Source of the DNA: a virus
Lineage: Duplodnaviria > Caudoviricetes
Virus record (IMG/VR): IMGVR_UViG_3300014204_000013
Span: 13,181-77,180 of that record
Direction: 5' to 3' (one strand)
DNA length: 64,000 bases
The notes under the pieces were generated by a model that saw nothing but the letters and a program-made list of their open reading frames with translations, was not told the DNA's origin and did no database searches. A program made the translations under genes and the position numbers. This document shows, piece after piece, positions 6,232 to 26,462 of the stretch (its first letter is position 1; each line of letters opens with the position of its first letter).

Positions 6232-7893
6232 TTATTTGGCTAATTGTTCAGCAGTTGTACGATCATACCCTTCTAGCATGAATTGTTTAATTGTGTTTTC
6301 TTTATCAGATTTTGTAGTATCTTTTGCTATTTTTACATCTATAGTTGCGTTTTCTGATAATTTTCCAGGAATTGAGGTATAAGCTATAAGTTGCGGTTGA
6401 CTTCCAGTTTCTGGTTTTTTCAAAATTGCCTGTCCATATACACCAGATACATCTTTAAATGATTCTGGTGATATTAATATAATATCTTCTACTGGCAATC
6501 CTAAAATAGATTTAATAGGATCCCCACTACCCAGCATTCCAATCAATACGGGTGCTTTCCTTTTTCCTGTTGCCTGTGGTTCTATTAAAGCATACATTGA
6601 AAACAAATTACCAGAGATATCCTTTTTTTCTCCTGTCTTTATTGCAAGTATGGCATGACCTGTTGCTTTTTTATTTTTGGATAGATCTGAATCGGTAATT
6701 GCAATATATACGTTTTGTATTCCTGCTTTTTTTAATGCTTTTGCAGATTCTATAGAAAATTGTTCACATTGGAATGAAGTTCCGAGTCCGGATAATTCTT
6801 CGGATTCAGCATATTTATATTTATTATTAACTATTACTTTATTTTGATTTGAATTTAACCACCTAAGAGCCGCATTTACTTCGGTTAATCCAGTCTGATC
6901 CCCTTCAATAGTTATTGCTGTGTTTTCATCATATCCTTCACGTAAATAAGTAGCTGTGTTACCCGATTGTAATGGATCTATTGGTCTATTTATATATGAA
7001 TCTGGTGGGTATGATATTTGTATTTTTTTAAATGGTCTATCAATTAGTGTACCCTGGTTATAATTATTAGATTTTATTTCCCAACCCCATTTATCTATAT
7101 TGAATTCCATAGGGCTTACGCTCATTATCTTCATCGTCTTCGTCTTAGGTTTAACCGTGTACGTATTCAATTTCAGTGGGTTTTCCTGGAACTGCGTAAT
7201 GCTTTCTTTGGCCTTTTGGACGGAGATTTTCATGTCTAAGGAAGGTTCGATTTTAGGAGAGGTTATTTTAAATGTGGACTGTGGAACGGGTTTCGTTAGC
7301 TGGGATTTGAGAGATGGGTTGATTTGGTATTTGGTGTTGGAGACTTTGAAAGTGGGGGAGGGATTAGATATAAAGGCAGATTTGGAGGATGTTGCTTTAA
7401 AATTTATAGTTTTAGTTGGGGTATTGGCTGGAAGTATCCCGGTTTCTTTTTTCATGAGATTGGAAATACTACTGAATTTTTTAGTGTTAGATATTGTTTG
7501 GTCCATTATTCCAATTGCTGATTTTAAAGGTATTGTGTCTGATTTGCCTTTTATGGATTGAAGAGTGTTGAAATATTGTTGCTGAGTATAATTTAGACCA
7601 TGTTTGGCGGCTGTTGCTGCCTGGGCTACACGAAAGATACTGACGTTGCCGGAGGGGATGACAGGGTTTAGGCCTGTTTTTGGAGTGATGGTTGTGCGGG
7701 CATTTTGTTTGGCGACTGCAGAAACTATGGTTGGATTTGGTGTAACTGTTATGGGTTTTGATTGGAATGAGAGAGATACGCCGGCTACGTTGAGAGTGGG
7801 CGTTGTCTTTGCAATTGGTTTTAATCCAGGATTACGAGCGATAAGCTGGGAGACTGAAGTTGGAGATGATTTGTTATTTAATTGAATAACCAT
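6232..7893 (-). CDS. protein with long S/T/K/P-rich leader and C-terminal transglutaminase-like (papain-fold) domain
   Basis: FQCEQFS...GHAILAI...YALIEPQ resembles the Cys-His-(Asp/Glu) triad of transglutaminase-like proteases. Confidence 0.6.
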   Translation of the reverse strand: MVIQLNNKSSPTSVSQLIARNPGLKPIAKTTPTLNVAGVSLSFQSKPITVTPNPTIVSAVAKQNARTTITPKTGLNPVIPSGNVSIFRVAQAATAAKHGLNYTQQQYFNTLQSIKGKSDTIPLKSAIGIMDQTISNTKKFSSISNLMKKETGILPANTPTKTINFKATSSKSAFISNPSPTFKVSNTKYQINPSLKSQLTKPVPQSTFKITSPKIEPSLDMKISVQKAKESITQFQENPLKLNTYTVKPKTKTMKIMSVSPMEFNIDKWGWEIKSNNYNQGTLIDRPFKKIQISYPPDSYINRPIDPLQSGNTATYLREGYDENTAITIEGDQTGLTEVNAALRWLNSNQNKVIVNNKYKYAESEELSGLGTSFQCEQFSIESAKALKKAGIQNVYIAITDSDLSKNKKATGHAILAIKTGEKKDISGNLFSMYALIEPQATGKRKAPVLIGMLGSGDPIKSILGLPVEDIILISPESFKDVSGVYGQAILKKPETGSQPQLIAYTSIPGKLSENATIDVKIAKDTTKSDKENTIKQFMLEGYDRTTAEQLAK

Positions 7894-7925
7894 AATAAAT
7901 GGTTAATTTACAAGAATAAAAAGAT

Positions 7926-10900
7926 TTAGGTAAATAAAGTCTGTTGCCTAGATTTCAACTGTAGATCCATCTCACTGATTCCAAAACATGAAAATATCCT
8001 GGTTAGTGGAGGAATAAGTTGTTTTTGGAGGTAATATTCGGTATCTATGGGTAGGTTGTGCTCCAATACATATTCTGGATCTTCGGCGCGGCTGGTCATA
8101 AGTTGCTTTCGCTTTCCGCTTTTCGGGCCGCTTTTGATGATGATGAAGGGTATTCTGTCACCTAGCACATACTTATGAATACCGCGAGCATCTAGTTTTT
8201 TCATCAGTTCTGCATGGGGTTGTACCTGGTTATAGTTTTCTGGGTTACGGGTTAGTGTTCTGGAAAGTATTAAATCTTTTAGGATTGTGTGATTGGATGA
8301 TTTTACATTTTGTAGAGCTGTCCTGGCATGATTCAATGCCAGGTCTACGTTACCTTCTATGAGAATTAGTTCCAGGCATTTAGTTAAAGTCATAGCGGTT
8401 AGGTTGCACCAATCGCGACGTACTGTTTCAATTCCTTTTGCCTTTATGATTCCTTTATCGGCGGTTTCAAATCGATACATCGCATAATGCTTTTTCGCTA
8501 CGATGAGAAGTCTTTTTGCAAACGCTTCGAAGACGAGTTCCATGGGGGCTGGGAGGCCTGCAGTTGCAATTGTAGCAATTTCTTTACCAATGCTTTTGGC
8601 GATGTTAAAATCAACTCCACCTTTAATGGATATAAAAATAGAATCGGTATTGTGTAATAATATTTGACCCATACTATCTACAAATGTATGTGCATCTTCC
8701 ACTGATAAATCATATACATAACAATTTGACGAGCATTCTGTTATATTGGTATGTGTTGCCATTTTGGATTTTCCACTCCATTCTCTGATTGTATATTCAT
8801 GCTTATCTTCTCTAAATTTTGTCCTGTATTTTACATTTAATATTGATAATAGTGTAGATATTCCACTAGCTAATCTGGTTGATGTGGTTGAATATTCAAA
8901 ATGTCCACTGATATTAATATATCCATCGCCTCTTACTAATTCATTGAACAATATCAGTTGATCTTTTGACTCCATATTAAATATAAAATCTGGTAGTTTT
9001 TTATTTTTAGATTCATGCCCACATAATGCATTAAAAAAATGAGCACTTGCCATATTCATCATTTGCAACTTACGAGTTTCATCTTTATATGGATTTCCAC
9101 CATTGATAGATCTAATTTTCTTTTGAGATTCGATTACACACGTTTTTACATTATTTATAAACATGTGGTAGATATTTTCCATTTCAAGTAACCAATTTAC
9201 ATCAGTGTCGCATATGGCAGATCCTATTTTAGATCCAAAAGATGCACTACCTTCTGTAATATATCCACATAACAGAATTCCCAGTTTAAGCAATTCATCC
9301 TGATTATAAAATCGTTGAATTGATATTTTGGTATTTTGTCCACCACCCAGTTTTATAGTGTTTTCATGCTTTACGAAATATCGATTCATGAATTTGTAAT
9401 CTTTAACATATTCCCATAAATCTATTTGTGTAATATGTTTATCGGATTTTGGTATATTGCATCTGTACATTTTAGTAAATTGCATTTCAGTTGGTTTGGT
9501 TTTGTTTAAATCGATATCCATAAATGAATGATCTTCTGTTGTTACAGATTCACCGAATTTTTGATTTACCCGATATATTTTTTTAGTTGTAAAATGTCGC
9601 ATAATAAAATTAATTGGCTTCCATCCCAAATGCGTTAAAGCGTTCATTTCTGAAACTATAGCATATTCTTTACCGTTATGTATTTCGATATCATCTGCGT
9701 TATTAAATAATTCTTCTACAGGGATTACTTTTATAATCTCATTTTCTTGAATTGTAATACACCTATCACCCACAATGCTATCTCCAGATACTACTTCTAG
9801 TTCGTACTTCTTTTCTTCTAATTCGAAGTTTGAATGTTCTTTCACGATACTTTTAGTTCTAAGTAGATTTTCTCTGCCATATGCTGTAACTGAGTTTGTG
9901 ATGATGGGTGAGAATAGTCTGGCTCGGGTGTAGCCCGAGTAACCGTAAATTGAATTTAGTAGGATCTTCATGGCATATTGTTTGGCATCCAGGGCATCTT
10001 TCTCCTCGGGGGTAGCTGCAGTTTTCATTGCAGTCTTGGCTGCCAGGCGTTCGGCTAGCAGGGTTTTGAGAATGCGAGGGACTATGCCTATGTAAGTGGA
10101 TTGGCTGACAAATTTTCCACCGCATGGGGTAGTTATGATGTCTCCGGGGGGTTGCTCATCTCGGATTTCGGTGCTGTAGCAGAGATTGTAGGCCATCATG
10201 ATGGTTGGGTATAGCGATTTGTAGTCAAGAATAACTACGTCCTCTGTAAGTCCTATTTTTGGATCAAGAACGATGGCACCTTTAATGGTTTCGGCTTCCG
10301 AAATGTCGTCATCTTCTAAGGCTTGTTTGGTTCCCATGACACGGTGTTCTTCTTTAAATGCTCTGGATATTCGGGCTTCAATCATATGAGATTGGCCGCC
10401 GTTGACAACCACTTGAAGAAATGCACCACTAGCCTTGGAAAGTGCGAAGTATTTATTCATGAATCCTAATTGTTTAACTAGCATCATGACTAACGTTGAA
10501 TCTCGTCGGGAATATGAGATGAATTTATTGATACCCGAACCTTCCCAGAGAGCACGCATCTCTCCGGGTTTTACATCAAGTTTTTCACTATGCAGGATTT
10601 CTTTTGCTACATTTTTTAGGCTGTAGGATTTTAGGCGATATTTGTCCATGGCTTTGATGGCCGGCAGGGTATCCAAGACAATTCTACCTCGAATGGATAC
10701 TTTGTATTTGCCCATGAAACTGGTACACCAGGCTGGTTTGCCATCCCGAGACATTCTTAGCTTAACTTCTAAGATTTTGGCTCTATCGGTTATATATGGT
10801 ATATCGAATCCAACTATGTTATGGCCTGCAACTATGTCAGGATCAAACTCATTTATGATGAAATCTAATTTTTTTAACATATCCTTTTCATTGTCGGAGC

Positions 10901-11552
10901 AGATCACATCAGGTCGTGGGCAATCGATATCTTTTGCAACCATTACAACGTTGTTTTGACCTCGCCATTGAGGGTCAAATTCCAAGCTGATTAAGACTAT
11001 GGAGTTTACGTCTGCAGTTGGGAATGAACCATCGTCTTTTGGGAGAGTTTCTATATCGATGGCCATTGTTTTTAACGGGGCATTCTTTTTTTCATCTACG
11101 GAAATTATGTCTTCGTGTGAGATGGTTGGAGAGTCGGGAGTTATCACCCAGCCTGCCCCGCTTATCCCGTGATCTATGGCGAATCGATCTGCGAAAAGTA
11201 CGTCACTTTCGTAAGTTGTGTAACCATCGGAGGTGCAAAAGTCGTTTAAGAGCTTTGTATCCTTTGGATTTTTGACCGTTACTTTGAGCATATTCCTGGG
11301 TTTCGACTGGAAACCAAGGGGTCTAAATCTTTTGACATCTTGGAAACGCATCTCGATTCCAATTGAATCTCCTAATGCAGATAAATATTTCTCAGCCTGG
11401 GTTGGTGATGGGTGGTCTATGTAGAAATAAGGTAAAAAGCCAGTAACTCGTTTTGTGATAGATGTGCCGTTTTCTGTTATGCCAAAAAGTACAATTACGG
11501 GAAATCCGTTAAAATCGTAATTGTAAGTGGCATCGAGGATCTGGAATTTCAT
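7926..11552 (-). CDS. polB: family B DNA polymerase (archaeal type) containing an intein
   Basis: Exo motifs AIDIET, GHNIVGFDIPY, YSRRD; pol motifs LDYKSLYP, KILLNSIYGY, SGD|TDS; AKGIETVRRDW. Confidence 0.95.
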   Translation of the reverse strand: MKFQILDATYNYDFNGFPVIVLFGITENGTSITKRVTGFLPYFYIDHPSPTQAEKYLSALGDSIGIEMRFQDVKRFRPLGFQSKPRNMLKVTVKNPKDTKLLNDFCTSDGYTTYESDVLFADRFAIDHGISGAGWVITPDSPTISHEDIISVDEKKNAPLKTMAIDIETLPKDDGSFPTADVNSIVLISLEFDPQWRGQNNVVMVAKDIDCPRPDVICSDNEKDMLKKLDFIINEFDPDIVAGHNIVGFDIPYITDRAKILEVKLRMSRDGKPAWCTSFMGKYKVSIRGRIVLDTLPAIKAMDKYRLKSYSLKNVAKEILHSEKLDVKPGEMRALWEGSGINKFISYSRRDSTLVMMLVKQLGFMNKYFALSKASGAFLQVVVNGGQSHMIEARISRAFKEEHRVMGTKQALEDDDISEAETIKGAIVLDPKIGLTEDVVILDYKSLYPTIMMAYNLCYSTEIRDEQPPGDIITTPCGGKFVSQSTYIGIVPRILKTLLAERLAAKTAMKTAATPEEKDALDAKQYAMKILLNSIYGYSGYTRARLFSPIITNSVTAYGRENLLRTKSIVKEHSNFELEEKKYELEVVSGDSIVGDRCITIQENEIIKVIPVEELFNNADDIEIHNGKEYAIVSEMNALTHLGWKPINFIMRHFTTKKIYRVNQKFGESVTTEDHSFMDIDLNKTKPTEMQFTKMYRCNIPKSDKHITQIDLWEYVKDYKFMNRYFVKHENTIKLGGGQNTKISIQRFYNQDELLKLGILLCGYITEGSASFGSKIGSAICDTDVNWLLEMENIYHMFINNVKTCVIESQKKIRSINGGNPYKDETRKLQMMNMASAHFFNALCGHESKNKKLPDFIFNMESKDQLILFNELVRGDGYINISGHFEYSTTSTRLASGISTLLSILNVKYRTKFREDKHEYTIREWSGKSKMATHTNITECSSNCYVYDLSVEDAHTFVDSMGQILLHNTDSIFISIKGGVDFNIAKSIGKEIATIATAGLPAPMELVFEAFAKRLLIVAKKHYAMYRFETADKGIIKAKGIETVRRDWCNLTAMTLTKCLELILIEGNVDLALNHARTALQNVKSSNHTILKDLILSRTLTRNPENYNQVQPHAELMKKLDARGIHKYVLGDRIPFIIIKSGPKSGKRKQLMTSRAEDPEYVLEHNLPIDTEYYLQKQLIPPLTRIFSCFGISEMDLQLKSRQQTLFT
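8649..9779 (-). mobile_element. intein (377 aa) with LAGLIDADG-type endonuclease in PolB motif C
   Basis: Starts SIVGDRCITI, ends ILLHN followed by Thr; CGYITEGS and NELVRGDG motifs. Confidence 0.92.
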
Positions 11553-11983
11553 AATTTGGCAAGCCTCTCAAATGCTTCTTTATTTCGGCTCATACTTTCT
11601 AAAACGTGTTTTTGCATGGGGGATGGGAGTGAACTTAAAGGATCACCCATTAAGATTTTAAAGACAATAAATTCACCATATTTGGAATTGTATTTATCAA
11701 TTTCATTCCAAGTTTTAGTGTCAGATAATGGTACTGGGATCATTTCTTTCATAACTTCTTTCGGAACATCATAAACATGACGGGTTAAGATTACATCGGT
11801 AATGATACCCCACAATGCCCCTTTAACAGCGTACCCTCTTCTCAATTCTACCTTTCTTCCAACCCATATGGTTTTAGTGTTGAACCCTGGGCGTACTCCT
11901 CGAATCTCCCATTTCTTAGCTCCTGATAAAAAAAGGTCATACCATTGCTTGTTTAATGGTACAAAAAGTCGATCTTTACTCAT
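11549..11983 (-). CDS. ASCH/PUA-like domain protein
   Basis: LFVPLNKQWYDLFLSGAKKWEIR...GRKVELRRGY ASCH signature. Confidence 0.7.
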   Translation of the reverse strand: MSKDRLFVPLNKQWYDLFLSGAKKWEIRGVRPGFNTKTIWVGRKVELRRGYAVKGALWGIITDVILTRHVYDVPKEVMKEMIPVPLSDTKTWNEIDKYNSKYGEFIVFKILMGDPLSSLPSPMQKHVLESMSRNKEAFERLAKL

Positions 11984-12371
11984 ATTCCTCCGAAAATACT
12001 ATTCTGGTTATCTTGGCGTTTTTTAGCAGTTTTTGACACATCACACATGGGCTGTGAGTACAGTAAAGGGTTGCTCCCTCGATAGATACGCCATGTAAAG
12101 CCGCTTGGATTATCGCATTTGCTTCAGCATGGACTGCCCGACATCGCTCAAATCCGGTCGCGTGTTCTGGTTTAGAGCAACCAACATCAATGCAGTGTTC
12201 CTCACCTGTAGGAGCACCATTATATCCTGCAGATATGACATGACCATTTTTTACAAACATGGCACCTACATGCCGGTGGGTGCAAGTTGACCTGGCTGCT
12301 ACTACTTTTACCATTTCTAAGTAGTAGGTGTCTATGTCGGGTCTGGTGTCGATTAAGGTTTGGGTTTTCAT
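11976..12371 (-). CDS. dCMP deaminase
   Basis: STC...VGA, GYNG, HAEANA, HSPCVMC. Confidence 0.93.
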   Translation of the reverse strand: MKTQTLIDTRPDIDTYYLEMVKVVAARSTCTHRHVGAMFVKNGHVISAGYNGAPTGEEHCIDVGCSKPEHATGFERCRAVHAEANAIIQAALHGVSIEGATLYCTHSPCVMCQKLLKNAKITRIVFSEEYE

Positions 12372-12373
12372 GG

Positions 12374-13909: not shown

Positions 13910-13927
13910 GAAGAAGATATTAGAGAG

Positions 13928-13955
13928 GGAACCTATTTAAAGGTTTTGATGGGTT
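13928..13955 (-). promoter_or_regulatory. conserved viral promoter (BRE/TATA), copy 1
   Basis: 28-bp exact repeat GGAACCTATTTAAAGGTTTTGATGGGTT; TTTAAATA on the minus strand ~25 nt upstream of the thyA ATG. Confidence 0.75.
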
Positions 13956-14008
13956 TGGCTTTATATGTAAAATTGGTTTTTCAAATACTAGTGTTGAATG
14001 TTATAAAC

Positions 14009-14698: not shown

Positions 14699-15435
14699 AT
14701 CCCTTCTGCTTCAAATATTTTCTGTGCTGATTTCCCTAACCTGCGGTTGTTTATTTTGATTTCTTCAAGCTGGGTGAGATCTCCGGAGTCATGACAGTTT
14801 TGTGCAAATGCCATGAATTCGATTACTGATCCAAATTGTTTGATTATAGATTCGGCACGCTCCCATCCAACACCTGGTAAATTTGTCAAAACGTTAATGG
14901 CATGCATGTTTTTGTAAGGGTGGCATAAAAGGTTCAGTGGTGGTGAATCTGTGATGTCGTGGAGCATGTACTGGATGAGAGTGCGGTAGGCAAAAATTGG
15001 GTCCCGAGAAAGGAATAATGGGGTTACTCCGATTTCTTTTATGTCACCCAGGATTACGAGAAGCATTTCTTCGGCTTTCATGATTTGATCTTCAGTTTTT
15101 TCAACTGGGCCATCTTCAGTCATATAGACGGTAGGGATTGCATCGCGAACATCTTCCATACTGCCAAAAATGGCTAAGTAGGCGGTGTCACAGTTTACAG
15201 CCAGGTCCATACACTGCCGACCTAACCTCCCCCTGGGTGGCAGGGATCCAAATAGGTCTTCTACGAGTTTTACTTCGGCACCTGCTTTTTTGTCGTTTCC
15301 TGTGAGTAGTATATCAAATGGTAGATTAGCTTCAGTTGGTGGAGATATGTACTTTTTATAATATATGGATGCGTCTTTTAGGAAATCTGGGCGCAGAGAC
15401 TGTTTTTCGTTGGTGTCGTACTGTAGGGTAAACAT
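14689..15435 (-). CDS. ERCC4/XPF-family structure-specific nuclease with HhH domain
   Basis: YDTNE, FDILL, AEVKLVEDLFGS..GRL..Q, and LPGVGWERAESIIKQFGS HhH. Confidence 0.8.
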   Translation of the reverse strand: MFTLQYDTNEKQSLRPDFLKDASIYYKKYISPPTEANLPFDILLTGNDKKAGAEVKLVEDLFGSLPPRGRLGRQCMDLAVNCDTAYLAIFGSMEDVRDAIPTVYMTEDGPVEKTEDQIMKAEEMLLVILGDIKEIGVTPLFLSRDPIFAYRTLIQYMLHDITDSPPLNLLCHPYKNMHAINVLTNLPGVGWERAESIIKQFGSVIEFMAFAQNCHDSGDLTQLEEIKINNRRLGKSAQKIFEAEGIWS

Positions 15436-15436
15436 T

Positions 15437-15819: not shown

Positions 15820-16650
15820 TTATGTAGTTACGTGTTTGTCATAATCTTTTAGGAAACTTCGTAGTTCAATCGGAGTTTTAAAAGAAATTTCGTCATCTTT
15901 CATAGATCCACCATATTTGAATAGTAAGTTATTGAATGTTTTGGTTTTGACAGATCCCGCATTGTTTTTGTCGTATCCTCGCGAATAAGATCCATCGGGA
16001 TATACCCATATTTTAATGGAATTTAGACTTGAGTAATCATTGTTTTTTATATTAGAATTGATAGTGTTAATAGCATTTTTAAATCCTTGATCAGTATCCT
16101 TCATTTCTGGATATAATACAGCTACGATTGCTTCAGTTGATAGTGTTGGGTTGTCTTTAATTAATTTAACTGCAGGTATGGCAATTTTACCAAACTTAAT
16201 AGATTGTTGTATATATGAGTCTGGAAATGTGAGAGTACCATTATTTATTATAAGACGATCACTGTTAACGCTCATCGTTTTTAATGGTGTATTTAATTTT
16301 GAAGGGAGCTTATATTTATTTACAATCGATTTGGGTTGAATCTGGTAGTTATCTGTAACTGTTTTGGATGGATTTTTAATTGTATTTAGATTTGATTTTG
16401 GAGTAATTGTTATACGGGCATTTTGTTTTACTACAGTGGATACGATAATTGGGTTTGCTTTAACTCCAGGAATTGGTGCTGAGGTTTTGATAGCTAAAGG
16501 TTTTAAACTAGGATTACGAGCCATGATACTAGATTGAGATTTAGTTGGAATAATCTTGGTAAGGGAAGACTTTTTAGTTGTACTGCCAACACGTACTGTT
16601 GATTTTGACGTTTTAGCTCCTATTTTAATTGTCATAGTAATAGATATCAT
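15820..16650 (-). CDS. hypothetical protein with the shared S/T/K/P-rich leader
   Basis: ARNPSLKP...KQNARITITP...KTMSV as in 6232..7893 and 17874..26462. Confidence 0.7.
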   Translation of the reverse strand: MISITMTIKIGAKTSKSTVRVGSTTKKSSLTKIIPTKSQSSIMARNPSLKPLAIKTSAPIPGVKANPIIVSTVVKQNARITITPKSNLNTIKNPSKTVTDNYQIQPKSIVNKYKLPSKLNTPLKTMSVNSDRLIINNGTLTFPDSYIQQSIKFGKIAIPAVKLIKDNPTLSTEAIVAVLYPEMKDTDQGFKNAINTINSNIKNNDYSSLNSIKIWVYPDGSYSRGYDKNNAGSVKTKTFNNLLFKYGGSMKDDEISFKTPIELRSFLKDYDKHVTT

Positions 16651-16699: not shown

Positions 16700-17887
16700 C
16701 TAAGAAGTACTATTCAGAATAGCATCCCATGTTCGAAGATTTCCGATATTAGTAGGCACAACAAACTTAGCCCATAATGTTACCTCTGAACCATTTGCAG
16801 GCACGGATACTTGATATTGAGGCATTCCGGTGTATTCGAAATCACCGGAAGTTCCGTGAAGGATAACTCCCAACCATCCTTTCCATACAGCATTTCCACG
16901 ATTTCGGACTTTGTACCCGAACCATGTCTCTGCAGGTGGTGCCTTCACATAATTACATACAGGTGCTACCATTTCCAGTGTAGCAAGTTTGGTTGCAGGC
17001 GCGTTGTTGGATACACAACTGGATATCTGGACTCCAACCTGTTTTGCAACTATGGATTCAGCCTCGGGATTATATGTCTTAGCCTGGCCTTCCAAAATCA
17101 TAGTGTTGTTGATATTTATATCATCTGGATAATACACTTGGGCGACTTGACGGTTGTAAGAATCCATGCCTTTGATAACCAATCTAACTATAGAACCTGG
17201 GGGTATGTGCTCGCCAAGCCAGGTTTTAGCAGTTCTTCCGGATTGAAATTTTAATTCCGATGAGGATATGCCTTCCAGTCTAACCGTGAATTGAGTTGTT
17301 ACGCAAAGCTGTCCAACGGGACAAATTTGATTAGCTTCAAAGGTATCTCCATCTGTTATTGAGAGAACCCTGGCTGAAATAGTTGATCCGGTTACTGGTG
17401 TTACCATTGGTAGACTTGTTAAATATGTTCCTAAAGATTCATTTATATTTTCTGTACCCTTTGTAATTATGTACGAATTACCCATTGGTGTTAATGTTAC
17501 ATTTGAACCGATTGGTAAATGCAGATTTAAGTATGATTCTGCATCTACATCATTATCTTCGGTTGTTACAATTCCATATAATGTTATACTTTTAGGAGTG
17601 TAATCACATACGTTTCCTGATATGCAATCAAGCAGAACACTTACACTTGTTCCGCTATTTATTGCTACAATTCTAGCAGTTACTTCAATACCTGTTGTAG
17701 GGGGTATGTAGGTGCTACCCAATACTGAAAACATCCAGGATATATCATTAGAATTTACATCTGAGTCATTTTCTAAATCAGATTTGATTGCTTTAAGTAA
17801 TGCAGTTGAATTTATACGCCCAGTAGCAAAAAAATTATCGGATAGCCAGGATTTGCGAGTATCGGTTATCATTTTAGACACCTCCAT
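16700..17887 (-). CDS. staphylococcal-nuclease (thermonuclease) domain protein with a second, degenerate OB/SNase domain
   Basis: SITDGDTF, VRLEGISSSE, DSYNRQVAQVY, INNTMILEGQA; the earlier repeat lacks the catalytic DGDT. Confidence 0.8.
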   Translation of the reverse strand: MEVSKMITDTRKSWLSDNFFATGRINSTALLKAIKSDLENDSDVNSNDISWMFSVLGSTYIPPTTGIEVTARIVAINSGTSVSVLLDCISGNVCDYTPKSITLYGIVTTEDNDVDAESYLNLHLPIGSNVTLTPMGNSYIITKGTENINESLGTYLTSLPMVTPVTGSTISARVLSITDGDTFEANQICPVGQLCVTTQFTVRLEGISSSELKFQSGRTAKTWLGEHIPPGSIVRLVIKGMDSYNRQVAQVYYPDDININNTMILEGQAKTYNPEAESIVAKQVGVQISSCVSNNAPATKLATLEMVAPVCNYVKAPPAETWFGYKVRNRGNAVWKGWLGVILHGTSGDFEYTGMPQYQVSVPANGSEVTLWAKFVVPTNIGNLRTWDAILNSTS

Positions 17888-20800
17888 ATGCAGTAATTAA
17901 GTTTAATACATCGATAGCTGTAAATGTCCAGGTTCCGGTTATAGTAGGACTGGCTGCAGCTTTTGCTGCAGTAGCTAATGCATTGTCAGATTGAGATATC
18001 GCATATGCATATACGATATGATCTGGATTCAGCGCATTATCCCCACCAACTGCATTTATAAATTGCTCTGCTTTGGTTAAAGTGGTTCCAGAGGATGGGT
18101 AAAGGGTGACAGATTTACGAGCTATGCTTCCGGCGTAAACTTGTACAGGGATCGTATATGACTTGTAGCCAGACTTTTGGATGGTTACGGTATGAACTCC
18201 TGCTTCGACCTCAATTATTACGTCTGTGTCGCCTATCTTTGCACCATTTTCATAGACTTCAGCACCCAGGCCTGCGGTGTCGATGAAGATTCCGGTTTGG
18301 CCGGTTGATTTGGAGTATGAGCTTCCACCGCTCTTTGAAGAATATCCGCTACCACTACCGCCACTTTTTGATCCGGTAGATGAACAGTTGTAAGTACATG
18401 CCCAATTATCTTCTTTTGATAAGAAACCTGTTATGTCTTTTCCACCGCTATTTATGTATTCTGCATATTTTCCTGTATCTAGTGTGTATTCTGCACCTCC
18501 CTCAGATGACTTCTTTTGGTTGATATCATATTGGCCTGTTACTGGATTTAGCAGTTTTCCACTTTGAATTATGCTTGAAGTGTGTGGATATCCAGTATCA
18601 TCTATCCAAGATACCGTATTACCGGATGCAGTCAATTTAAATTTGGATGGATCATTTTGCCTAGCAGTAAATGCAGCAGCTTGGGCTGCCGGCATAAATT
18701 GCTCTATTCTGGCACCAGAGTCAACCATTCCATTGGCTTTGTACTCATTGATTTTTTTAGCTAACTGTTCGGGATCACTTATAGTAGCTAAATCCGCAGC
18801 AACCATTTTATTGATTGCTTCTGCTGGAAATAAGGCTTTCATTTGGGCTGCTGTCATGTCTGGGTATGCTGTTTTGAGTTTTGCTGCATCTAAACTCCCA
18901 TCTGGCTTAATAAATGCAGATCTCCAAACCTGAGCATCACCAGGCTGGGTGCCTCCGAAAGTTGCATATCGTGTCAATGCATCCATTGTAGTTGGAGCTA
19001 CAGCTATTGTAGCCGTTTGATCAGAATTTAAACCAGTTAATGCTGTTCCTGGGGATGCACCAGTTGGGGGTAATGTTCCATCTTTAGCAGTGAGTGCTTT
19101 AGTATAAGCTTGTAATGCCATTTCAGATGTTGCCCCGCCCTTTACGACCTGGGCGTAAGCTGCACTAAAATCGTCCGTTAAAATCTTTTTGGCACCTTGG
19201 TTAGCGGCTGCCTGCATATGTCCCAGACCTACTTGAACTGCCAAAGCTGGGTCCGTTATGCCAAGACCCTGAGCGATCATATTGTTTGGGCCTATACTCC
19301 CGTCCGGTTGGATATCATAGACTCTACCAGTGAAATCTGCATCCCAATATTGAACTTTATCGGGGTTGGCTGCAAAATAAGCTGGCCATTCGCTTTCTGG
19401 ACGAATTTTACCCCAACATCCAGGACCTTGGGTACATCCTACGTCTGGTATCCATAGACCAGCATTGGTGATTTTTCCGAGTTTGTCTTTTATTTGTGCG
19501 TTTGCTGCATAATCCATGTACCATTTGAAACCAATAGCTGCAGGAAACAGCATGGAAAAACCAGGGATATTTTCCAATGCCCAATCAAATGGAGCAAGCA
19601 TATCATTTATTTTATTCATTGCGGGTAGACCAGTTTCATTCATCTGTTTGGCAAATTGATCTATAGGTGAATTGAATCCAACCATCTGAATCAAAGACTG
19701 GGTGCCTTCTTCTGCAGCGAAGTAAATGAAGAATGCACCGTTTACTGCTAAATAAGTTGCTACTACCCCAGTTACTGCTCTTAGTTTATGAGTGGCTACC
19801 CATTTAGCTGCTTTTCCAGCAGATCCGATTACAGTTCCTCGAATGAACCTACTGAATGTGCTTCTGGGCAATGTTGCTTGAATTTCGGCTAGTTTTTCCA
19901 TATCTTCGATAGTGTAGATCCGTTTGGTGTAAAGCTGATCTACGAAATCTTTAGCGCCTTTACTTAGGTTTGCAAATTTTGGATCGGATTTTACAGATGC
20001 GATAATTGCATCTTGAGCAGCCTTTTGGAATTGAGTTGCAACGTCTGGATTGATATCGTAAACTTTATTGAAAGCTTCATCTGCAAATTTTTCATCTTTC
20101 AATGCAGTTTTGACATCGGTATCTGATAGCAACTTTCGAAGCTCTGATGTTTTGTCTGCAATAGATGAATCTAATATGCTGTTGATCTTCATTCTTCCAA
20201 GATCGGAGCTTACTGATATCCCCTCATAGGCTTTTGCATTATCAAATATACGTTCCATTTGCTGGTAATCCGTTTGACTGAGTGCTCTGGTCTTTGCTTT
20301 GCTTATTAGTTCTTGATCAGATCTTGTCATCTTTGTGATGGTACTATCTGTAATACGATTAGCAGCACCCTGGTAGTTAAGGCCCATGATCTTTTCTGCC
20401 TGGGAGCGATCACTGCCGAGCTTTGATGCAATTTTGGATGCTAGATCTTCTGCTTCTGATCGGGACATGTTTTGAATTGTCTCGATAAGGGCTTCATCTT
20501 TGGATATTAGGTTTTCAAATGCCTTTTTACCTTCTGAAACTGGTAAATTGTTTAATTCGGTAAGCAATTCGTTGATTTTACCAGTACCTGTTCTGATGTT
20601 GGATGCTTTGGCCTTTGAGATAGCCAAATCGTCCCATTGGGCTTTATTATATGCTTTAAGTTTAGATTCTGCTGCAGTCAGCCTTCCTTTGGCAGCTACT
20701 TTTTCAGCAGCCAAAGCTTTGTTTTTTGGATCTGCGGATGCCTTTGCTGAAGCTGTAGCGTAATCATCGCTAAGTTTAGCTACCTCGTCTGCTGAATTGA

Positions 20801-23800
20801 TGATATTAGATCTGGTTGCTTCAAGCTTTGCTGCAGCTTCAGAATATTCAGATGCTAATGTAGTCGGGGATATTGTTTCGGAAATAGTCTGGGGTATTTC
20901 TTGTACGGCAGGTTCTGGTATTATTTCTGTTTGTATTGATTCTTCTGGTGATGATCTGAGATTGTCGATCATGTTTGATCGGGATTCATCTAAATATTTT
21001 GTGAGATATGGTAGATCATCGCCTGATAGGTTCCGTATTTCGTTAGCATTGGATTCTATGAATGTTCTAAATTCATCTGCACCCAGGGCCTGGATATCTG
21101 TGCCGGCCAGGCCTACAACTCGGATGGCATCACGTTCAATTACGTTCACGGTTTTTCCGAGCTGGAAAGCTCCGGATTTGCTTGCTTCTCGAACTGTGCT
21201 CCAAACTAGACCGCTGGGGGTCATGAGATCGATTTTAACGAACTCTTGAGTCATGTCGCTGGTTAAACCACCAGAACTGGTTAGACCTGACCATTCTGCC
21301 TCTGAAGCAGCATATGGGTCAGCCTTAGTGATAGATATGACTTTGCTTCCATCTGCATCTGCTGGTATTTGGAATTGAGTTTGAACATTGGTTGGTTTTT
21401 CCCAGAAGTACATATCGATTGGTTTTACTGCAAAGTTGATTGCTTCGTCTGCAGTAGTTATTAGATCGCTTTTTCGGATAAATGAAATTGATCCTTCTGG
21501 TGATTTAACTATCCAACCGGGAAGTTTTTTGTATGTATATTCGACAGCTAGAGCACCATCACTTCCTGCAGTAAATACGCCACTGTTGAATGATTTGGCA
21601 AATGCAGTTTCCATAGTCGATGATGTAGGTGATTTTGGGGTTGAAATTAGGATGTCACTATACTTGTTATTTCCAAGTACCAATTCAGCCAGTCCATAAT
21701 CTGAATTTTGCGAAGTCCACCAGGTGGGCATTTCGGATATGAGAGATTTGGCTGATTTAAGGGCTTCTACGATTTTGTCCCAGGTTTGGGTTGCTTGGAG
21801 AGTCCAGGACCCTTTCAAAGAGTTGAATTTATTTAACAGGTTTGAAATGGTACTAGGTTCTCCTGCATAATATCCTAGTTCGGCTTGGATGATATTTTTG
21901 CTTTCATCTGGGATGGTGGTGTATTCATCCATAGCAAGCAATTTTCCAATGTTCTCTTCAGCTTTGGTTTGATGAACGATTATTTCTTTTTCAGGTGGTA
22001 GACCGGATAATTTGATTTCTGAATCCGACATCTGGCTAATTGCATCTCTATTGCCAGTTACCATGTTTTCGAAATCATTCATTGGCATGAGATTGGCTGA
22101 AGTTTCTCCTCCGGTAGCTGCATCGAAGGCTGCCTGGCCCTCTGGTGACATTTGAGATCTGAGGAATTGTGCTCGGGATATCTCGGCTTCAGTTAGAGAT
22201 TCACCGTTCTTGGCTTTGACTAGAATCTGGGTGTCTGATTCGGATTTTATGATTCGGTCAAAGTCAGAAGTTTGCACAAATTGGTCCCAGGCGCTTAGGG
22301 TTTGTTCGGCACCACCAGTCCTGGTTGCCACTTGAGCAACTGAATTATCATAGGCATACTGCAGGTTTGGAACATATGATGAATAATCTGATGGGGTTTG
22401 ATAGGTTGAAACTTGCGTTGGGGTGGGTGTATTTCGGGCAGCAAGGTATGCAGCATATTCATCTGGTGTTTGTCTTACATTGGTATATGGGTTTAGGATT
22501 GAGAATGTTCCATCAGAATTCTTAAAGTAGTAATATCCTTCTGGGTTCCAGATGGGTGTTTCTGCCGATCCGATTAGCTTAACATAGACATCTTTTTCCA
22601 GCCAGTTTCCAGTCTGTGGGTCCATGTATTGGACTGCCTTAGTAGCATCGTTGGTTCTGATTCTGGCATTATTCATAGAGCTGTCTACGCCATATGTGAA
22701 TGTTGGGTTGTTGAGTGCGATGGCGGCCCGTTCTGCGTCTAACTGGGCCTTTGTCACCCAACCCCCTGCAGAGTCCTGGTACATGGTTACGTCATATAAT
22801 CCCGTAGTTGGATTTTTAGTTAGTTTGGTGTAAGTATTGGTGGTTGCATCATATTTGGCTCTGCGGGCTTCATTACGGGTGGTTAAGAGTGATTCGTACT
22901 CTTTGGTAGACATTATTGCACTGGTTTCGGGATCTTTAACTTCCCACGTTTTTCCACCATCTAGACTGCGGATTTCAGCTCCCCAATCCGAATTCATGGT
23001 CCAGGTTGAGTAATCTGTTGCCCCAGTGGTAGTTCCTCCACTATAACCTTCACTACCGCCCATTCCTCCACTGCCTTCTCCACCCATGCCGCCGCTACCT
23101 TCCCCATACATATCTTCGGCCCTGGCTGCCCATTCTGCTTCTTCAGAGGCTAGAGTGGGTTCCGCACCATTGGATGCTATTTTAGTTTCATAGTCGGATT
23201 GAGCTGCGGCTTGCTTAATTTCGTCAGTGAGTGTTGCGGTAGGAGCTTTAACTGATACTGTTCCTTTAAGTCCAGATTCCGGATCCGCCCAGGATACATG
23301 AAATACGTTATCAGCTTCATTTACGGACGAAGTTAATTTTACAACACTTGCATGCCCAGTTTCATCTACTTCTTGTACACTCAATATTCCTTTTACATTT
23401 GGATCATAGTCTTCAGCAACGGAAAGGAATCTAGGGTTGGTTTTACTGCCATAGTTGATGTATTTTTGACCATCGGCACCTCTATATACACCTTGACCGA
23501 GATCTTCTGTAAGTTGTATATCATTTGCAGTTAATGGTTTGTATTCTGTAGGACTACTTCCATATTTTGCAACATCTTTTGCAATAGACTCTTCTAATTG
23601 TTTTAGTGATGCTGCAGTGGTTTCACTTATGCTTTTGGTTGGTGTAACTGTCGATGTAGATTGTTTAACTTTAATTTTTCCATCAGGACCCATTTCCAAA
23701 GTAGCCTTGGGTGTTTCGAATTTGGTGGATTCAGATGATATTGTCTTGGTTTTTGGGGTTCTAGAAAGATCAGATTCGATATCAAAGGTTTCTTTACCGA

Positions 23801-26462
23801 TGGTTGCTTTAATTTTAGAAGTTGCAGGGTCTATTGACGCTTTGCCTACTTCTATTCCATTTTCTAATATTTTTCCTTCTCGGGTTAATTCTAATGCTTT
23901 TGCAGCCAGTTTTCCAGTAGTGGTGACTGGTTTCATTGGAATTAATCCAGCTAAAACTAGGTTTGCACCAGGACTTAGTGTTACTGCGTCATAGAATAAT
24001 GAAATCGCATCAATAGAATGTGCATTTCCAAAATCTTCCATATTTTCAAAGGTATTTATGTTAAATCGAAGATCTGGATTGTTTGAATTTAAGTCTCGGT
24101 TATATTGTTCTAATTCGGTTTTACTCATGGCACTTTGGATAACTGGTTCAAATTTATCACCCAATTCCTGGGAGATTTTATTTCTCAATTGAGTATCGGT
24201 TGATGCTCCTAATAGAACTCTCGGATTGCTTTTTGCAATTTTATCTAAATCAGATGCACTTGCAGATTTGATTGCATCTGAAAATATCTCATATGAAGTT
24301 ACTCCACCTACAGACGGGATATTTCTAAGGGATACGCCGGGTGCAGTTAATTGTTTAAGAATCATGTCCTTTGCAAGTATTCCTTCTACAGTATCCTGTA
24401 ACTCATATCCATTTGGGTATTCTGGTCTATTTACTTTTCCGAATAAATTGCCTAGATAGGATACGGTTTTTCCTATGATACTTGTATCTTGTGATTCCGC
24501 TGCTTGTTTTTGGGCAGCCGTTAGAGGAACAATTTTACCAAGTCCTGCCTGTACCATTCTTTCTTCATATGGTAGGAGCGCAGTTTTAGCTTCGGTTATA
24601 AGACTACCAGGTTCCCCGAAATCTGCAACTGGAACACTTGCAACGGGCGCGGTGGCTATCTTTTCAAGTACTTTTGTACCCAAATCGGCGGTTTCGGCTT
24701 CGGTAAGTCCAATAAATTTGGCTTTGGCTAATGCCCATTCAGGTACTGCAGTAGGTATATTATTTGAATTTTTTACAACTGTAGGTTCTACATAAAATAG
24801 GCTTTTATCGATTACTGCATCTGGTCTATATGATTTTAAATCTAATGTGATTTTTCCAGTTTCTTTTCCCGCATTAACACCTGCGCCGCTTCCTAATGTT
24901 TGTGGTACTATTCCCATTTTTCCACTGGCCATCGCAGTGGCCATTTGGGTATCAGACCAACCAGTGGCTTTTAATGAAGTATATACGTCTGGATCAACTT
25001 TAACAATTGTTCCAGTACTAGATTTTATCGATATTGCGTTTTTAATAGTTGATTTTGATGATATTACATCATTTCCAATTGAGCCTGTGTTATCAAAATC
25101 CAATGCTCCTGCAGCTTGGGCTTCTGCTTTAGTTCTTGCATCTTTTTGAGCTTGGGTTTCGGGTTCTGCTTTTTTAGTAGTGCTGGGTTTGGATGGTGCT
25201 TTAGTTTTATCATTGGTAATAGATCCGGGTGGGTTAGCTGCAGGAATGGCATCTGATTTTCCAGAACTTTTCTTAATGTCTTGAATGGTTTTTTCTAACG
25301 GGGTTGGATTTACCAAATCGAATCCGGGTATATTCATTGATTCAGTTCCACCCACGCTCATGATACCCAATTTGGTTTTACCGGCTTCTATTCGGGCATT
25401 GGCTGCAGCAGTCGCACCATTTTTGACAATGCTCGACAATTTTGATATTAGGGCTTCGTGGTCATTCTTGACCGTGGCATCCGATGCAATTTTCATGTTT
25501 ATTACGTTATCATTTGCCACTGAAGCTACGGTTTTTAGATTTCGTGCATCTGACGTAGATGCCGCCTTTTTCATTCCAGACGTAACCAAATTCGATATGG
25601 ATTTTATTGCATTTATTGCGGTTATATTGTTTACCTCATTGGTAGCAACGGATTTAGTGGTAATTGTGTTAATTCTAGCCTTTGATAATGTGGATAAAGA
25701 GGATAGTTGTGGAGCAATGAGCTGATTAAAATTCTCTGAAGCGTTTTGACCACTTAATGCCTTTGCCACTATGGAATTTATTTTAGCGGTAACATCTTCA
25801 TTGTCTGCTATTTTTGCACCATTTACCCAATTAAGGTCAGTACGACCTGCAATAGTAGCTGATGCTTTGTTTGCAACGTCTACTATTTTTTTAACTGTAT
25901 CGTTGATGGTGGGTGATAATGTGGGAATTGTAACGGTTGGTGTGTTAAGTAAGCTATTGGTGGGGATGGTTGTTATTTTAGGAGCAGATGCTTTTGATTC
26001 TGCTAATATAGCTGCAAGGGTTTGAGTTACAGTCGGTGCGGGTGGTTTGACAGGTTCAACTACTCCGGGTACACTGGATAGCTGAATTGCTATTGGTTTA
26101 ACTGAAACTGGTGATAAATTTTCCTGTAAAGTAAGATTGGTTCGAGCATTACTAACTTGTACTGCTGTTTGTAAGGTTTTATTTACTACTACAGATGGGA
26201 TAGGAGTTGGTGTTTTTACCGTAGTAAGAGGTTTTAAACTTGGATTACGATCAATTAATGTTTGCTGCGCCGAGGATACCGACGCGGTGGGTGTAGGAAC
26301 TAACCTAGTCTGTGTAACGTATGATACACCAGAAGGAGCAGCTACTGCAGGCCTGGAAACCGCAGGTGGATTATATACCGATACAGGAGTTGAAGATTTA
26401 ATTCCAGAGGACCCGCCAATGGAAACTGTAGCTCTGGATCCTCCACTAAGTTGGATTACCAT
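17874..26462 (-). CDS. giant 2862-aa protein: low-complexity leader, helical middle, hydrophobic segment, C-terminal PEGA domain
   Basis: Uninterrupted ORF; TM-like LRAVTGVVATYLAVNGAFFIYFAA (~19705-19785); PEGA-like GIFIDT..GAEVY..G..IG....GVHTVTIQKSGY (~18105-18300). Confidence 0.8.
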   Translation of the reverse strand: MVIQLSGGSRATVSIGGSSGIKSSTPVSVYNPPAVSRPAVAAPSGVSYVTQTRLVPTPTASVSSAQQTLIDRNPSLKPLTTVKTPTPIPSVVVNKTLQTAVQVSNARTNLTLQENLSPVSVKPIAIQLSSVPGVVEPVKPPAPTVTQTLAAILAESKASAPKITTIPTNSLLNTPTVTIPTLSPTINDTVKKIVDVANKASATIAGRTDLNWVNGAKIADNEDVTAKINSIVAKALSGQNASENFNQLIAPQLSSLSTLSKARINTITTKSVATNEVNNITAINAIKSISNLVTSGMKKAASTSDARNLKTVASVANDNVINMKIASDATVKNDHEALISKLSSIVKNGATAAANARIEAGKTKLGIMSVGGTESMNIPGFDLVNPTPLEKTIQDIKKSSGKSDAIPAANPPGSITNDKTKAPSKPSTTKKAEPETQAQKDARTKAEAQAAGALDFDNTGSIGNDVISSKSTIKNAISIKSSTGTIVKVDPDVYTSLKATGWSDTQMATAMASGKMGIVPQTLGSGAGVNAGKETGKITLDLKSYRPDAVIDKSLFYVEPTVVKNSNNIPTAVPEWALAKAKFIGLTEAETADLGTKVLEKIATAPVASVPVADFGEPGSLITEAKTALLPYEERMVQAGLGKIVPLTAAQKQAAESQDTSIIGKTVSYLGNLFGKVNRPEYPNGYELQDTVEGILAKDMILKQLTAPGVSLRNIPSVGGVTSYEIFSDAIKSASASDLDKIAKSNPRVLLGASTDTQLRNKISQELGDKFEPVIQSAMSKTELEQYNRDLNSNNPDLRFNINTFENMEDFGNAHSIDAISLFYDAVTLSPGANLVLAGLIPMKPVTTTGKLAAKALELTREGKILENGIEVGKASIDPATSKIKATIGKETFDIESDLSRTPKTKTISSESTKFETPKATLEMGPDGKIKVKQSTSTVTPTKSISETTAASLKQLEESIAKDVAKYGSSPTEYKPLTANDIQLTEDLGQGVYRGADGQKYINYGSKTNPRFLSVAEDYDPNVKGILSVQEVDETGHASVVKLTSSVNEADNVFHVSWADPESGLKGTVSVKAPTATLTDEIKQAAAQSDYETKIASNGAEPTLASEEAEWAARAEDMYGEGSGGMGGEGSGGMGGSEGYSGGTTTGATDYSTWTMNSDWGAEIRSLDGGKTWEVKDPETSAIMSTKEYESLLTTRNEARRAKYDATTNTYTKLTKNPTTGLYDVTMYQDSAGGWVTKAQLDAERAAIALNNPTFTYGVDSSMNNARIRTNDATKAVQYMDPQTGNWLEKDVYVKLIGSAETPIWNPEGYYYFKNSDGTFSILNPYTNVRQTPDEYAAYLAARNTPTPTQVSTYQTPSDYSSYVPNLQYAYDNSVAQVATRTGGAEQTLSAWDQFVQTSDFDRIIKSESDTQILVKAKNGESLTEAEISRAQFLRSQMSPEGQAAFDAATGGETSANLMPMNDFENMVTGNRDAISQMSDSEIKLSGLPPEKEIIVHQTKAEENIGKLLAMDEYTTIPDESKNIIQAELGYYAGEPSTISNLLNKFNSLKGSWTLQATQTWDKIVEALKSAKSLISEMPTWWTSQNSDYGLAELVLGNNKYSDILISTPKSPTSSTMETAFAKSFNSGVFTAGSDGALAVEYTYKKLPGWIVKSPEGSISFIRKSDLITTADEAINFAVKPIDMYFWEKPTNVQTQFQIPADADGSKVISITKADPYAASEAEWSGLTSSGGLTSDMTQEFVKIDLMTPSGLVWSTVREASKSGAFQLGKTVNVIERDAIRVVGLAGTDIQALGADEFRTFIESNANEIRNLSGDDLPYLTKYLDESRSNMIDNLRSSPEESIQTEIIPEPAVQEIPQTISETISPTTLASEYSEAAAKLEATRSNIINSADEVAKLSDDYATASAKASADPKNKALAAEKVAAKGRLTAAESKLKAYNKAQWDDLAISKAKASNIRTGTGKINELLTELNNLPVSEGKKAFENLISKDEALIETIQNMSRSEAEDLASKIASKLGSDRSQAEKIMGLNYQGAANRITDSTITKMTRSDQELISKAKTRALSQTDYQQMERIFDNAKAYEGISVSSDLGRMKINSILDSSIADKTSELRKLLSDTDVKTALKDEKFADEAFNKVYDINPDVATQFQKAAQDAIIASVKSDPKFANLSKGAKDFVDQLYTKRIYTIEDMEKLAEIQATLPRSTFSRFIRGTVIGSAGKAAKWVATHKLRAVTGVVATYLAVNGAFFIYFAAEEGTQSLIQMVGFNSPIDQFAKQMNETGLPAMNKINDMLAPFDWALENIPGFSMLFPAAIGFKWYMDYAANAQIKDKLGKITNAGLWIPDVGCTQGPGCWGKIRPESEWPAYFAANPDKVQYWDADFTGRVYDIQPDGSIGPNNMIAQGLGITDPALAVQVGLGHMQAAANQGAKKILTDDFSAAYAQVVKGGATSEMALQAYTKALTAKDGTLPPTGASPGTALTGLNSDQTATIAVAPTTMDALTRYATFGGTQPGDAQVWRSAFIKPDGSLDAAKLKTAYPDMTAAQMKALFPAEAINKMVAADLATISDPEQLAKKINEYKANGMVDSGARIEQFMPAAQAAAFTARQNDPSKFKLTASGNTVSWIDDTGYPHTSSIIQSGKLLNPVTGQYDINQKKSSEGGAEYTLDTGKYAEYINSGGKDITGFLSKEDNWACTYNCSSTGSKSGGSGSGYSSKSGGSSYSKSTGQTGIFIDTAGLGAEVYENGAKIGDTDVIIEVEAGVHTVTIQKSGYKSYTIPVQVYAGSIARKSVTLYPSSGTTLTKAEQFINAVGGDNALNPDHIVYAYAISQSDNALATAAKAAASPTITGTWTFTAIDVLNLITAYGGV

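Follow-up and report, generated by a model that had tools for sequence, protein, structure and literature searches.

Introduction

The placing of one N-terminal address on several unrelated virus proteins follows a logic that is already well known. In bacteriophage T4, the capsid targeting sequence (CTS), a short N-terminal sequence shared by diverse proteins, is sufficient to load them as well as foreign proteins into the particle during its assembly (PMC3012670). Here we describe a comparable arrangement in a virus of the Caudoviricetes (Duplodnaviria), in which N-terminal leaders of related sequence are carried by three otherwise unrelated proteins, called A, B and C below. Their genes lie in a stretch of 64,000 nucleotides (the window), which spans bases 13181-77180 of the 77,180-bp IMG/VR record IMGVR_UViG_3300014204_000013; the record is complete, with direct terminal repeats. 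A is encoded by the open reading frame (ORF) 6232-7893, B by ORF 15820-16650 and C by ORF 17874-26462 of the window, all on the minus strand.

As with the T4 CTS, one N-terminal sequence is found on several otherwise unrelated proteins of the same virus. The CTS, however, is about 10 residues long, attaches to the scaffolding core inside an HK97-type prohead and is cut off by gp21, the prohead protease, whereas the module described here spans 60-100 residues, comprises several motifs and derives from a giant protein with internal copies. Long N-terminal extensions with a repeated short motif also occur on several head and ejection proteins, including paralogues, of SPN3US, phiKZ and 201phi2-1; the SPN3US propeptides measure 111-254 residues and undergo multiple cleavages at repeated motifs (PMC10052503). 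The motif in those phages is a proven point of cleavage by their prohead protease (gp245/gp175), A/S/G-X-E, whereas the motif here is an amphipathic Thr/Ile/Phe/Lys strand and no protease was detected in scans of the genome. In adenovirus, two unrelated precursors, pVI and pVII, have N-terminal peptides with a common role, competing for the same hexon site (bioRxiv 10.1101/857581; PMC4246237). In contrast to adenovirus, scans of the present genome found no adenain-like (Peptidase_C5) gene, and the leader junctions hold no adenain consensus.

Two further systems are instructive. In dual-tailspike phages, and in adenovirus, where the fibre tail sits on the penton base, N-terminal anchors are common to different spikes or fibres, and anchor copies within a genome stay alike through their fit to one docking site. 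The N-termini of such proteins are conserved, matched within the genome and slower to change than the exchangeable C-terminal heads, and the same is found here. The known anchors belong to proven virion proteins and take the form of folded domains or of single short peptides, whereas here we find arrays of linear motifs, with internal copies in a protein of 2862 residues and a virion location that is presumed. LapG (Peptidase_C93, BTLCP), which cleaves the retention module at the N-terminus of LapA, a giant adhesin, offers a parallel of another kind, namely a transglutaminase-like cysteine peptidase encoded alongside a giant surface protein that depends on its N-terminal module for its location. 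That system is bacterial and periplasmic and uses a di-alanine site, whereas the C93 match of A is below threshold, A itself bears a leader, and most relatives are without an A-like gene. The initial annotation of this DNA had stated that no equivalent of the leaders has been described; given the T4 CTS, the SPN3US/phiKZ propeptides, adenovirus pVI/pVII and the fibre anchors, all of which share the logic, this was too strong. What is new are the sequences themselves, the motif-array architecture with internal copies in the giant, the virus group, and a concerted evolution that can be demonstrated.

A homologous module on three proteins

The N-terminal regions of A, B and C have in common a homologous module of about 60 residues. 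In BLASTP comparisons the leaders of A and B match at E 7e-12 (51% over 65 residues) and those of B and C at E 3e-9, the similarity between A and C being established only via B. Box 1 (RNPxLKP) begins at residues 20, 45 and 72 of A, B and C, box 2 (NAR[TI]x[IL]T) at residues 64, 77 and 105, and the tripeptide MSV at residues 257, 126 and 368. These are the places that the initial annotation had given, and A and C do begin with MVIQL, as it said. When all 77,180 bp of the genome are scanned in six frames, both boxes turn up in the A, B and C ORFs and nowhere else, and the C-terminal payloads of the three proteins have no mutual similarity at E<=0.1. The 99 ORFs, with 22,568 residues in all, hold five instances of MSV, of which A, B and C have one each. 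The features on which the comparison is built are as follows.

6232..7893, minus strand: gene A, 553 residues, with a leader (residues 1-259) and a putative transglutaminase-like Cys-His-Asp payload
7654..7866, minus strand: module copy of A, residues 10-80, with box 1 and box 2 (BLASTP, alignment)
7117..7125, minus strand: junction M-S-V of A, residues 257-259, closing the motif NPLKLNTYT...KIM[SAT]V (ortholog comparison)
15820..16650, minus strand: gene B, 276 residues, with a leader and an orphan payload of 150 residues
16372..16548, minus strand: module copy of B, residues 35-93 (BLASTP, profile)
16267..16275, minus strand: junction M-S-V of B, residues 126-128
17874..26462, minus strand: gene C, 2862 residues, the ancestral carrier of the leader
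26100..26279, minus strand: module copy of C, residues 62-121 (BLASTP, profile)

That the leader is a portable module, as first proposed, is borne out on three counts: it is homologous on three proteins with unrelated payloads, it is kept in orthologues, and it is shared again between two proteins of another virus, at locus L010. A lack of the motifs in orthologues had been named as grounds for dropping the idea; instead, the leader is conserved both in P0006, the A orthologue on contig L004, and in the A-like protein of L010.

Another short motif, (L/I)Q-x-IK...GKSD(T/A)IP, is found before MSV in A (residues ~111-122; 7528-7563, minus strand) and just past MSV in C (residues ~391-405; 25248-25292, minus strand). 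It is strongly conserved across A orthologues; its similarity taken alone (E 0.4) is not significant.

The giant protein and its family

Related virus genomes of 60-85 kb encode at least 34 homologues of protein C, 1800-3650 residues in length, on contigs of up to 85 kb in which gene order is conserved. In all of these relatives the N-terminal 100-400 residues consist of short-motif arrays in Ser/Thr/Pro-rich linkers. The array opens with a box of the type MV(I/R)(Q)LG...TVSIGGSS, or more generally Met-x-hydrophobic-x-hydrophobic-Gly, of which related forms occur in A-like proteins and in B. Clade-1 giants then have one to three units ending LAARN-x-GLKPL, and clade-2 giants have four to six strand-like TKTIxFK copies, often behind a helix-like DLAAALKNL unit. 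In its general form, x-L-x-A-R-N-x-G-L-K-P, box 1 is helix-like as well, and the TKTIxFK boxes are amphipathic. The motifs also recur far inside the giants. Box 1 is seen again at about residue 1160 of clade-1 giants, with KTKTISF six residues on, and clade-2 giants have TKTIxFK at alignable positions near residues 14, 48, 100, 150, 375, 700 and 1200. Internal sites align across the clades at conserved domain borders, and they include a degenerate copy in C, TPTKSISE, whose site matches the position of box 1 plus KTKTISF in clade 1 and of TKTIxFK in clade 2. The giant is the source of the module: all of the at least 34 homologues have N-terminal arrays, and the motifs recur internally at alignable positions. 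The corresponding features of C are listed here.

26403..26462, minus strand: N-terminal box MVIQL...TVSIGGSS, which every full-length giant retains at its extreme N-terminus
25383..25940, minus strand: helical domain, residues ~175-360, present in giants of all clades (giant alignment)
25353..25376, minus strand: TKLGIMSV, residues 363-370, aligned with TKTITFKT of other giants
23622..23645, minus strand: TPTKSISE, residues 940-947, degenerate internal copy of the motif, weak in C
18099..18293, minus strand: C-terminal PEGA domain, residues 2724-2788 (Pfam)

The helical domain is part of the giant and not of the portable leader. The leader was initially described as closing at MSV, immediately before the globular part of each protein. 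This description fails for C, where the leader proper ends near residue 175 and MSV ends the helical domain of ~190 residues, with a low-complexity linker following.

The best-conserved core of the giant (residues ~1120-1830) opens with repeated strand-hairpin-plus-helix units. A model of residues 1120-1810 has a predicted local distance difference test score (pLDDT) of 75 and gave generic helical matches only in VIA (Z<=6.3); in the protein atlas the giant scores 0.77. C has no PHROG match and no PDB sequence match. Across loci L007-L019 the giant gene is accompanied by a divergent nuclease/PEGA gene upstream and by a gene for an SNase-like protein of 390-400 residues downstream. The clade-1 leaders of the L019 giant and of the L015/L016 giants (P0017, P0019) contain near-perfect tandem duplications of 50-70 Pro-rich residues, of the YDKPISQTPAAQ... 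type, from which we conclude that leader arrays grow and shrink by tandem repeat expansion. The giants of L010 (5455-6033) and L011 (9443-10000) are called from internal starts ~190 residues past the conserved MV(I/L)QL; gene calls that drop N-termini in this way cause database proteins to under-represent these leaders.

Directly ahead of the giant, a small ORF at 26463-26582 ends just upstream of the start codon and is followed by an AGGAG ribosome-binding site. This ORF is conserved in L010 (5335-5454), and L007 has a called ORF of 33 residues in the corresponding position. In contrast to A and B, the giant is thus probably made from a polycistronic message.

Distribution and concerted evolution

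A search of related sequences with a hidden Markov model (HMM) built on the boxes had been suggested as a check. Against 1.84 billion representative proteins, the module HMM returned only B, C, P0006 and P0007 as matches of interest. P0007 (L005 86-3265, plus strand, on an unrelated 8.4-kb contig) has 1059 residues and resembles a miniature giant, with an N-terminal box of similar kind, four repeats that resemble box 1 ([IL]-x-R-[NS]-P-x-L-K) and, at the C-terminus, three PEGA domains; its repeats indicate that box 1 reaches beyond this virus family. A fifth match, the LysM-repeat protein P0008, is regarded as chance, the similarity being limited to an L-x-x-x-N-P-x-L stretch, and A, B and C have no Pfam match to a LysM domain at E<=0.1. 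Profile and pattern scans (box 1 plus box 2) of viral and metagenome contigs added no further carriers, with the limit that the tblastn step dropped 42 and 66 pattern matches, possibly short true relatives. A pattern match in L006 lies in a non-coding frame and was discarded as chance.

The relatives were examined at 13 loci with 10-kb flanks and in five whole IMG/VR records (three of them complete), which were searched with a clade-1 leader. Only L010, the closest relative, has a motif array on a second protein; non-giant proteins of the 12 other loci and the five records are without one. Non-giant carriers are confined to a single sublineage, made up of this virus, L010 and L004.

Within this sublineage the module copies of one genome resemble each other closely. 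In L010, residues 49-139 of the giant match residues 19-109 of the A-like protein (547 residues) with 69% identity (E 2e-29). Over the aligned module, copies in the window genome are 59, 45 and 38% identical to one another and those in L010 61%; across genomes the figure is only 30% for C and its counterpart in L010 and 47% for the A orthologues. Because identity is higher within than between genomes, the modules group by genome and not by protein, which is the mark of concerted evolution. Codon choice points the same way: identical residues are encoded by identical codons in 63% of cases for the L010 pair, 54% for A-B and 34% for A-C, where ~35% is expected. The excess indicates recent DNA exchange between copies, while the persistence of the boxes past synonymous saturation in the A-C pair indicates long-term selection. 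The upstream regions show that the copied unit is coding sequence and not regulation, as A, B and the A orthologues each have a TATA-like region of their own and C stands behind the small conserved ORF with its ribosome-binding site. Co-duplication of promoters is therefore rejected.

MSV and the question of cleavage

The initial annotation had proposed that the leaders may be removed at MSV by a viral protease, and had pointed out that MSV is encoded by the same DNA in all three genes. The plus-strand sequence ACGCTCAT is indeed present at 7118, 16268 and 25354, but ATG and GT in it are forced, and the only free choice in common is the Ser codon AGC. As the DNA upstream of MSV is unconserved among A, B and C, a shared internal start or promoter at this place is rejected.

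MSV is not kept as such in relatives. A orthologues read MAV (KIMAV) or MTV (KIMTV), and C orthologues read IMSS or IMEF. In the giant alignment, the place of TKLGIMSV in C is taken by TPTKTITFKT in most clade-2 giants, by TKLSIMSS in L010 and by NTIMEFKS in L011, and motifs of the TKTITFKT type number up to nine per giant, internal sites included. On this alignment MSV is best read as a local, diverged variant of a family-wide strand motif. Box 2 (ARTTITPK in A-type leaders, NTKTVISP in the giant of L010) seems to be a further copy of the same motif. With MSV aligned to a repeated strand motif, the main argument for a unique cleavage site falls away. We therefore set aside MSV as a dedicated cleavage site: it is unconserved, it occupies the position of a repeated TKTITFKT, and no protease family accompanies it. 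Pfam and PHROGs scans of all ORFs of at least 100 residues and of many shorter ones found no peptidase family, Peptidase_C5 included, although a highly divergent enzyme could escape such scans. The junctions MKIMSV, LKTMSV and LGIMSV do not contain the consensus (M/L/I)XGG-X or (M/L/I)XGX-G, and the residues that follow the strand motif are unconserved among the giants.

The payloads of A and B

A and its orthologue P0006 are near-identical over long stretches of the N-terminal half, and similarity collapses after KIM[SA]V. The pattern, as read from this alignment, is that of a conserved anchor with an exchangeable head. One feature stands out in the head of A.

6604..6885, minus strand: weak Peptidase_C93/transglutaminase-like core, residues 337-430 of A (Pfam, ortholog alignment)

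The match to Peptidase_C93 (PF06035) has E 0.002-0.006 and 16.7-18.1 bits, below the gathering cut-off of 27, and Pfam gave no Peptidase_C93 match in the A orthologues. Cys376, His413 and the following Asp are invariant in three orthologues, and the order of secondary structure fits. The sole cysteine of A is this putative catalytic residue. In the protein atlas the nearest entries to the payload are transglutaminase-like (score 0.90); an AlphaFold2 model from a 2-sequence alignment has a pLDDT of 32, and a profile search of PDB sequences and a search of NCBIfam returned nothing for the payload. A transglutaminase-like/Peptidase_C93 identity is plausible on these grounds, though the assignment is weak. 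The papain-like domain claimed earlier for A amounts to this sub-threshold match, with Cys, His and Asp residues conserved in three orthologues. Unrelated proteins, for example a leaderless beta-helix protein, occupy the position of gene A in most relatives. Most genomes with the motifs lack the A-type domain, which therefore can be neither the maturation protease of the family nor the enzyme for which the motifs evolved.

The database gene call for A (P0009) is a 333-residue product starting at Met221, which leaves out the N-terminal 220 residues. The gene directly downstream of A encodes a protein with an ordinary Sec signal peptide.

B probably starts at its sixth codon (MTIKIG...), giving a protein of 271 residues, because this start fits the family-wide N-terminal box. 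No homologues were found for its payload, and B is confined to this genome. In one low-depth contig of a related strain, from a groundwater run, position 15250 is followed directly by 16864, so that B would be deleted; the joint is unreliable, one side having only 22 matching letters.

Proposed function of the leader

All three proteins are extremely poor in cysteine, ranking with the poorest that the genome encodes, whereas cysteine makes up 2.0% of the remaining proteome: C has 4 in 2862 residues (P 6e-20), A has 1 in 553 (P 2e-4) and B has none in 276 (P 4e-3). The signal-peptide protein beside A is likewise cysteine-poor. The shared depletion suggests that A, B and C have a common destination unlike that of the surrounding replication proteins. 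The net charge of the first 100 leader residues is +10 in A, +16 in B and +7 in C, and Asp and Glu are almost absent. They have no hydrophobic h-region, the maximum 19-residue Kyte-Doolittle hydropathy being 1.1 for A and 0.96 for B, which rejects a Sec signal; a Tat signal is rejected since the motif is R-N and not R-R. N-glycosylation sequons are depleted in all three proteins, so that an enrichment as a sign of surface proteins was not found.

The reading that we favor, tentatively and at a little under even chances, is that of a portable module for assembly or docking at the N-terminus, one that was originally the giant's own and probably serves the virion. A piece of 60-100 residues of the giant's array was copied onto one or two accessory proteins (A and B) in one sublineage. 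The motifs may bind a common partner, probably by strand addition, and the most plausible partners would be a virion component (capsid shell, vertex) or the giant's own N-terminal stalk. A and B would thereby be recruited to where the giant sits, their variable C-terminal domains serving as exchangeable payloads, and the internal motif copies could act as a multi-point tether. Cleavage would not be needed. Such docking would account for the multiplicity of the motifs, the internal copies, the matching within genomes, the slow change of leader relative to payload and the shared composition. The PEGA domain of the giant also speaks for it, such domains being typical of surface proteins.

Several points weigh against this. 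The binding of a partner, its identity and the virion location are all deduced, and the equivalences of box 2 with TKTIxFK and of MSV with TKTITFKT are based on short alignments. The model of the giant core has no Foldseek match in PDB or BFVD. The A, B and C genes share strand and block with replication genes (family B DNA polymerase, dCMP deaminase, thymidylate-synthase-like protein, helicase), apart from a putative structural block at 34-47 kb. Most relatives have no leader-bearing accessory proteins. Finally, internal copies suit a multi-point tether but would equally suit processing sites.

The last point leads to the explanation that we regard as the principal competitor, though an unlikely one, namely that the leaders are cleavable propeptides, a generalized form of the initial proposal: a maturation protease, viral or of the host, would cut at the motifs, perhaps repeatedly, and the giant would be a polyprotein. 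The leaders are long (125-370 residues) and hold several motif copies, like the propeptides of SPN3US (PMC10052503). Internal copies at conserved domain borders of the giants fit processing, A orthologues lose similarity exactly past KIM[SAT]V, and A has a possible Cys-His-Asp peptidase-like core. That core, however, is missing from most family genomes that carry the motifs, and no other ORF matched a peptidase family in Pfam or PHROGs. The motif itself, an amphipathic strand with many beta-branched residues, lacks the small residues at P1/P1' that viral maturation sites typically have; what follows it is unconserved; and cuts at every copy would leave the N-termini of clade-2 giants as peptides of 30-50 residues. 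To judge by the analogy of adenovirus pVI, docking and propeptide models are mutually compatible.

Other explanations concern where the proteins go, or whether the leader does anything at all. Ser/Thr/Pro-rich linkers are common in archaeal surface proteins, and PEGA domains are typical of surface proteins. Together with the PEGA domain on the giant, the cysteine depletion in common with a clear signal-peptide protein and the basic, nearly acid-free first 100 residues, such linkers could mean that the leader exports the cysteine-poor proteins non-classically or anchors them at the surface of the host, the virion playing no part. We find this improbable, as the leaders have neither h-region nor twin arginine, the virus employs an ordinary Sec signal elsewhere, sequons are depleted and not enriched, leaders of other clades have acidic residues, and internal copies are unexpected for an export signal. 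It is also conceivable that A and B came about by recombination, when new domains joined a copied 5' part of the giant gene, and that the segment has no common function in its new hosts. Such hitch-hiking would agree with the surplus of identical codons for A-B and for the L010 pair, a sign of recent DNA exchange, with the orphan status of B, found in this genome only, and with the limitation of sharing to one sublineage. Yet the A-type leader is kept in three diverged genomes and changes more slowly than the payload, the boxes survive in the synonymously saturated A-C pair, L010 independently maintains a giant/A-like pairing with co-varying sequence, and promoters were not co-duplicated, which together make this account distinctly improbable. 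The charge of the first 100 residues (+10, +16 and +7), with hardly any Asp or Glu, might instead mark a Lys-rich nucleic-acid-binding tail by which the proteins travel with the viral DNA. This is very improbable: leaders are acid-free only in this sublineage, the conserved units of clades 1 and 2 contain Asp and Glu, conservation lies in specific motifs and not in charge, and A, B and C matched no DNA-binding family.

Implications

If the leader is an address tag, it offers a handle on the structural biology of an uncultured virus group, for it would mark proteins that travel together: a giant of 2862 residues, a putative cysteine peptidase/transglutaminase and an orphan. Such viruses would then gain particle-associated functions by grafting the tag onto new proteins, and the co-variation within genomes predicts a specific binding partner. 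A more far-reaching proposal, to which we lend little credence, is that a family of archaeal 60-85-kb viruses pins its giant to the capsid at several points through a hitherto unknown RN-x-GLKP/TKTIxFK code and that one sublineage turned this code into a transferable tag for loading new enzymes into the particle or onto it. Should the tag also be cut, and the capsid have a double jelly-roll fold, the virus would offer the first maturation or cargo-loading system in a prokaryotic virus of that kingdom, and would functionally parallel precursor processing in adenovirus and giant viruses. For annotation there is a practical warning, in that gene calls omit the leaders of A and of two giant orthologues.

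Genome setting

Pfam and PHROGs scans show that the genome encodes a family B DNA polymerase, a dCMP deaminase, an HNH endonuclease and a thymidylate-synthase-like protein. The same scans detected no terminase, portal, HK97 capsid, scaffold or prohead protease, and GenBank phages gave no match to the virus in DNA or protein. MC1 chromatin protein and DUF1699 are encoded as well and suggest that the host is archaeal, probably methanogen-related; the 77-kb virus is thus probably archaeal. An identical virus, letter for letter, is present in one landfill and one groundwater metagenome.

An XPD/Rad3-type helicase at 2323-4917 (minus strand) is interrupted by an intein (Hint plus LAGLIDADG homing endonuclease). 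PHROG matches of this ORF to 'terminase large subunit' fall on the residues that Pfam assigns to Hint/LAGLIDADG and for this reason do not speak for a terminase. The family B DNA polymerase at 7926-11552 (minus strand) has 1208 residues, compared with 871-934 in the relatives L007 and L008, and its PHROG match is split in two, which suggests an insertion of ~300 residues, possibly another intein.

Three more proteins are free or nearly free of cysteine and have no leader; they are encoded at 30679-31950 (plus strand), 48174-49646 (minus strand) and 49886-50470 (minus strand). They are helical, charged or of low complexity and are candidates for other particle-associated or scaffolding proteins.

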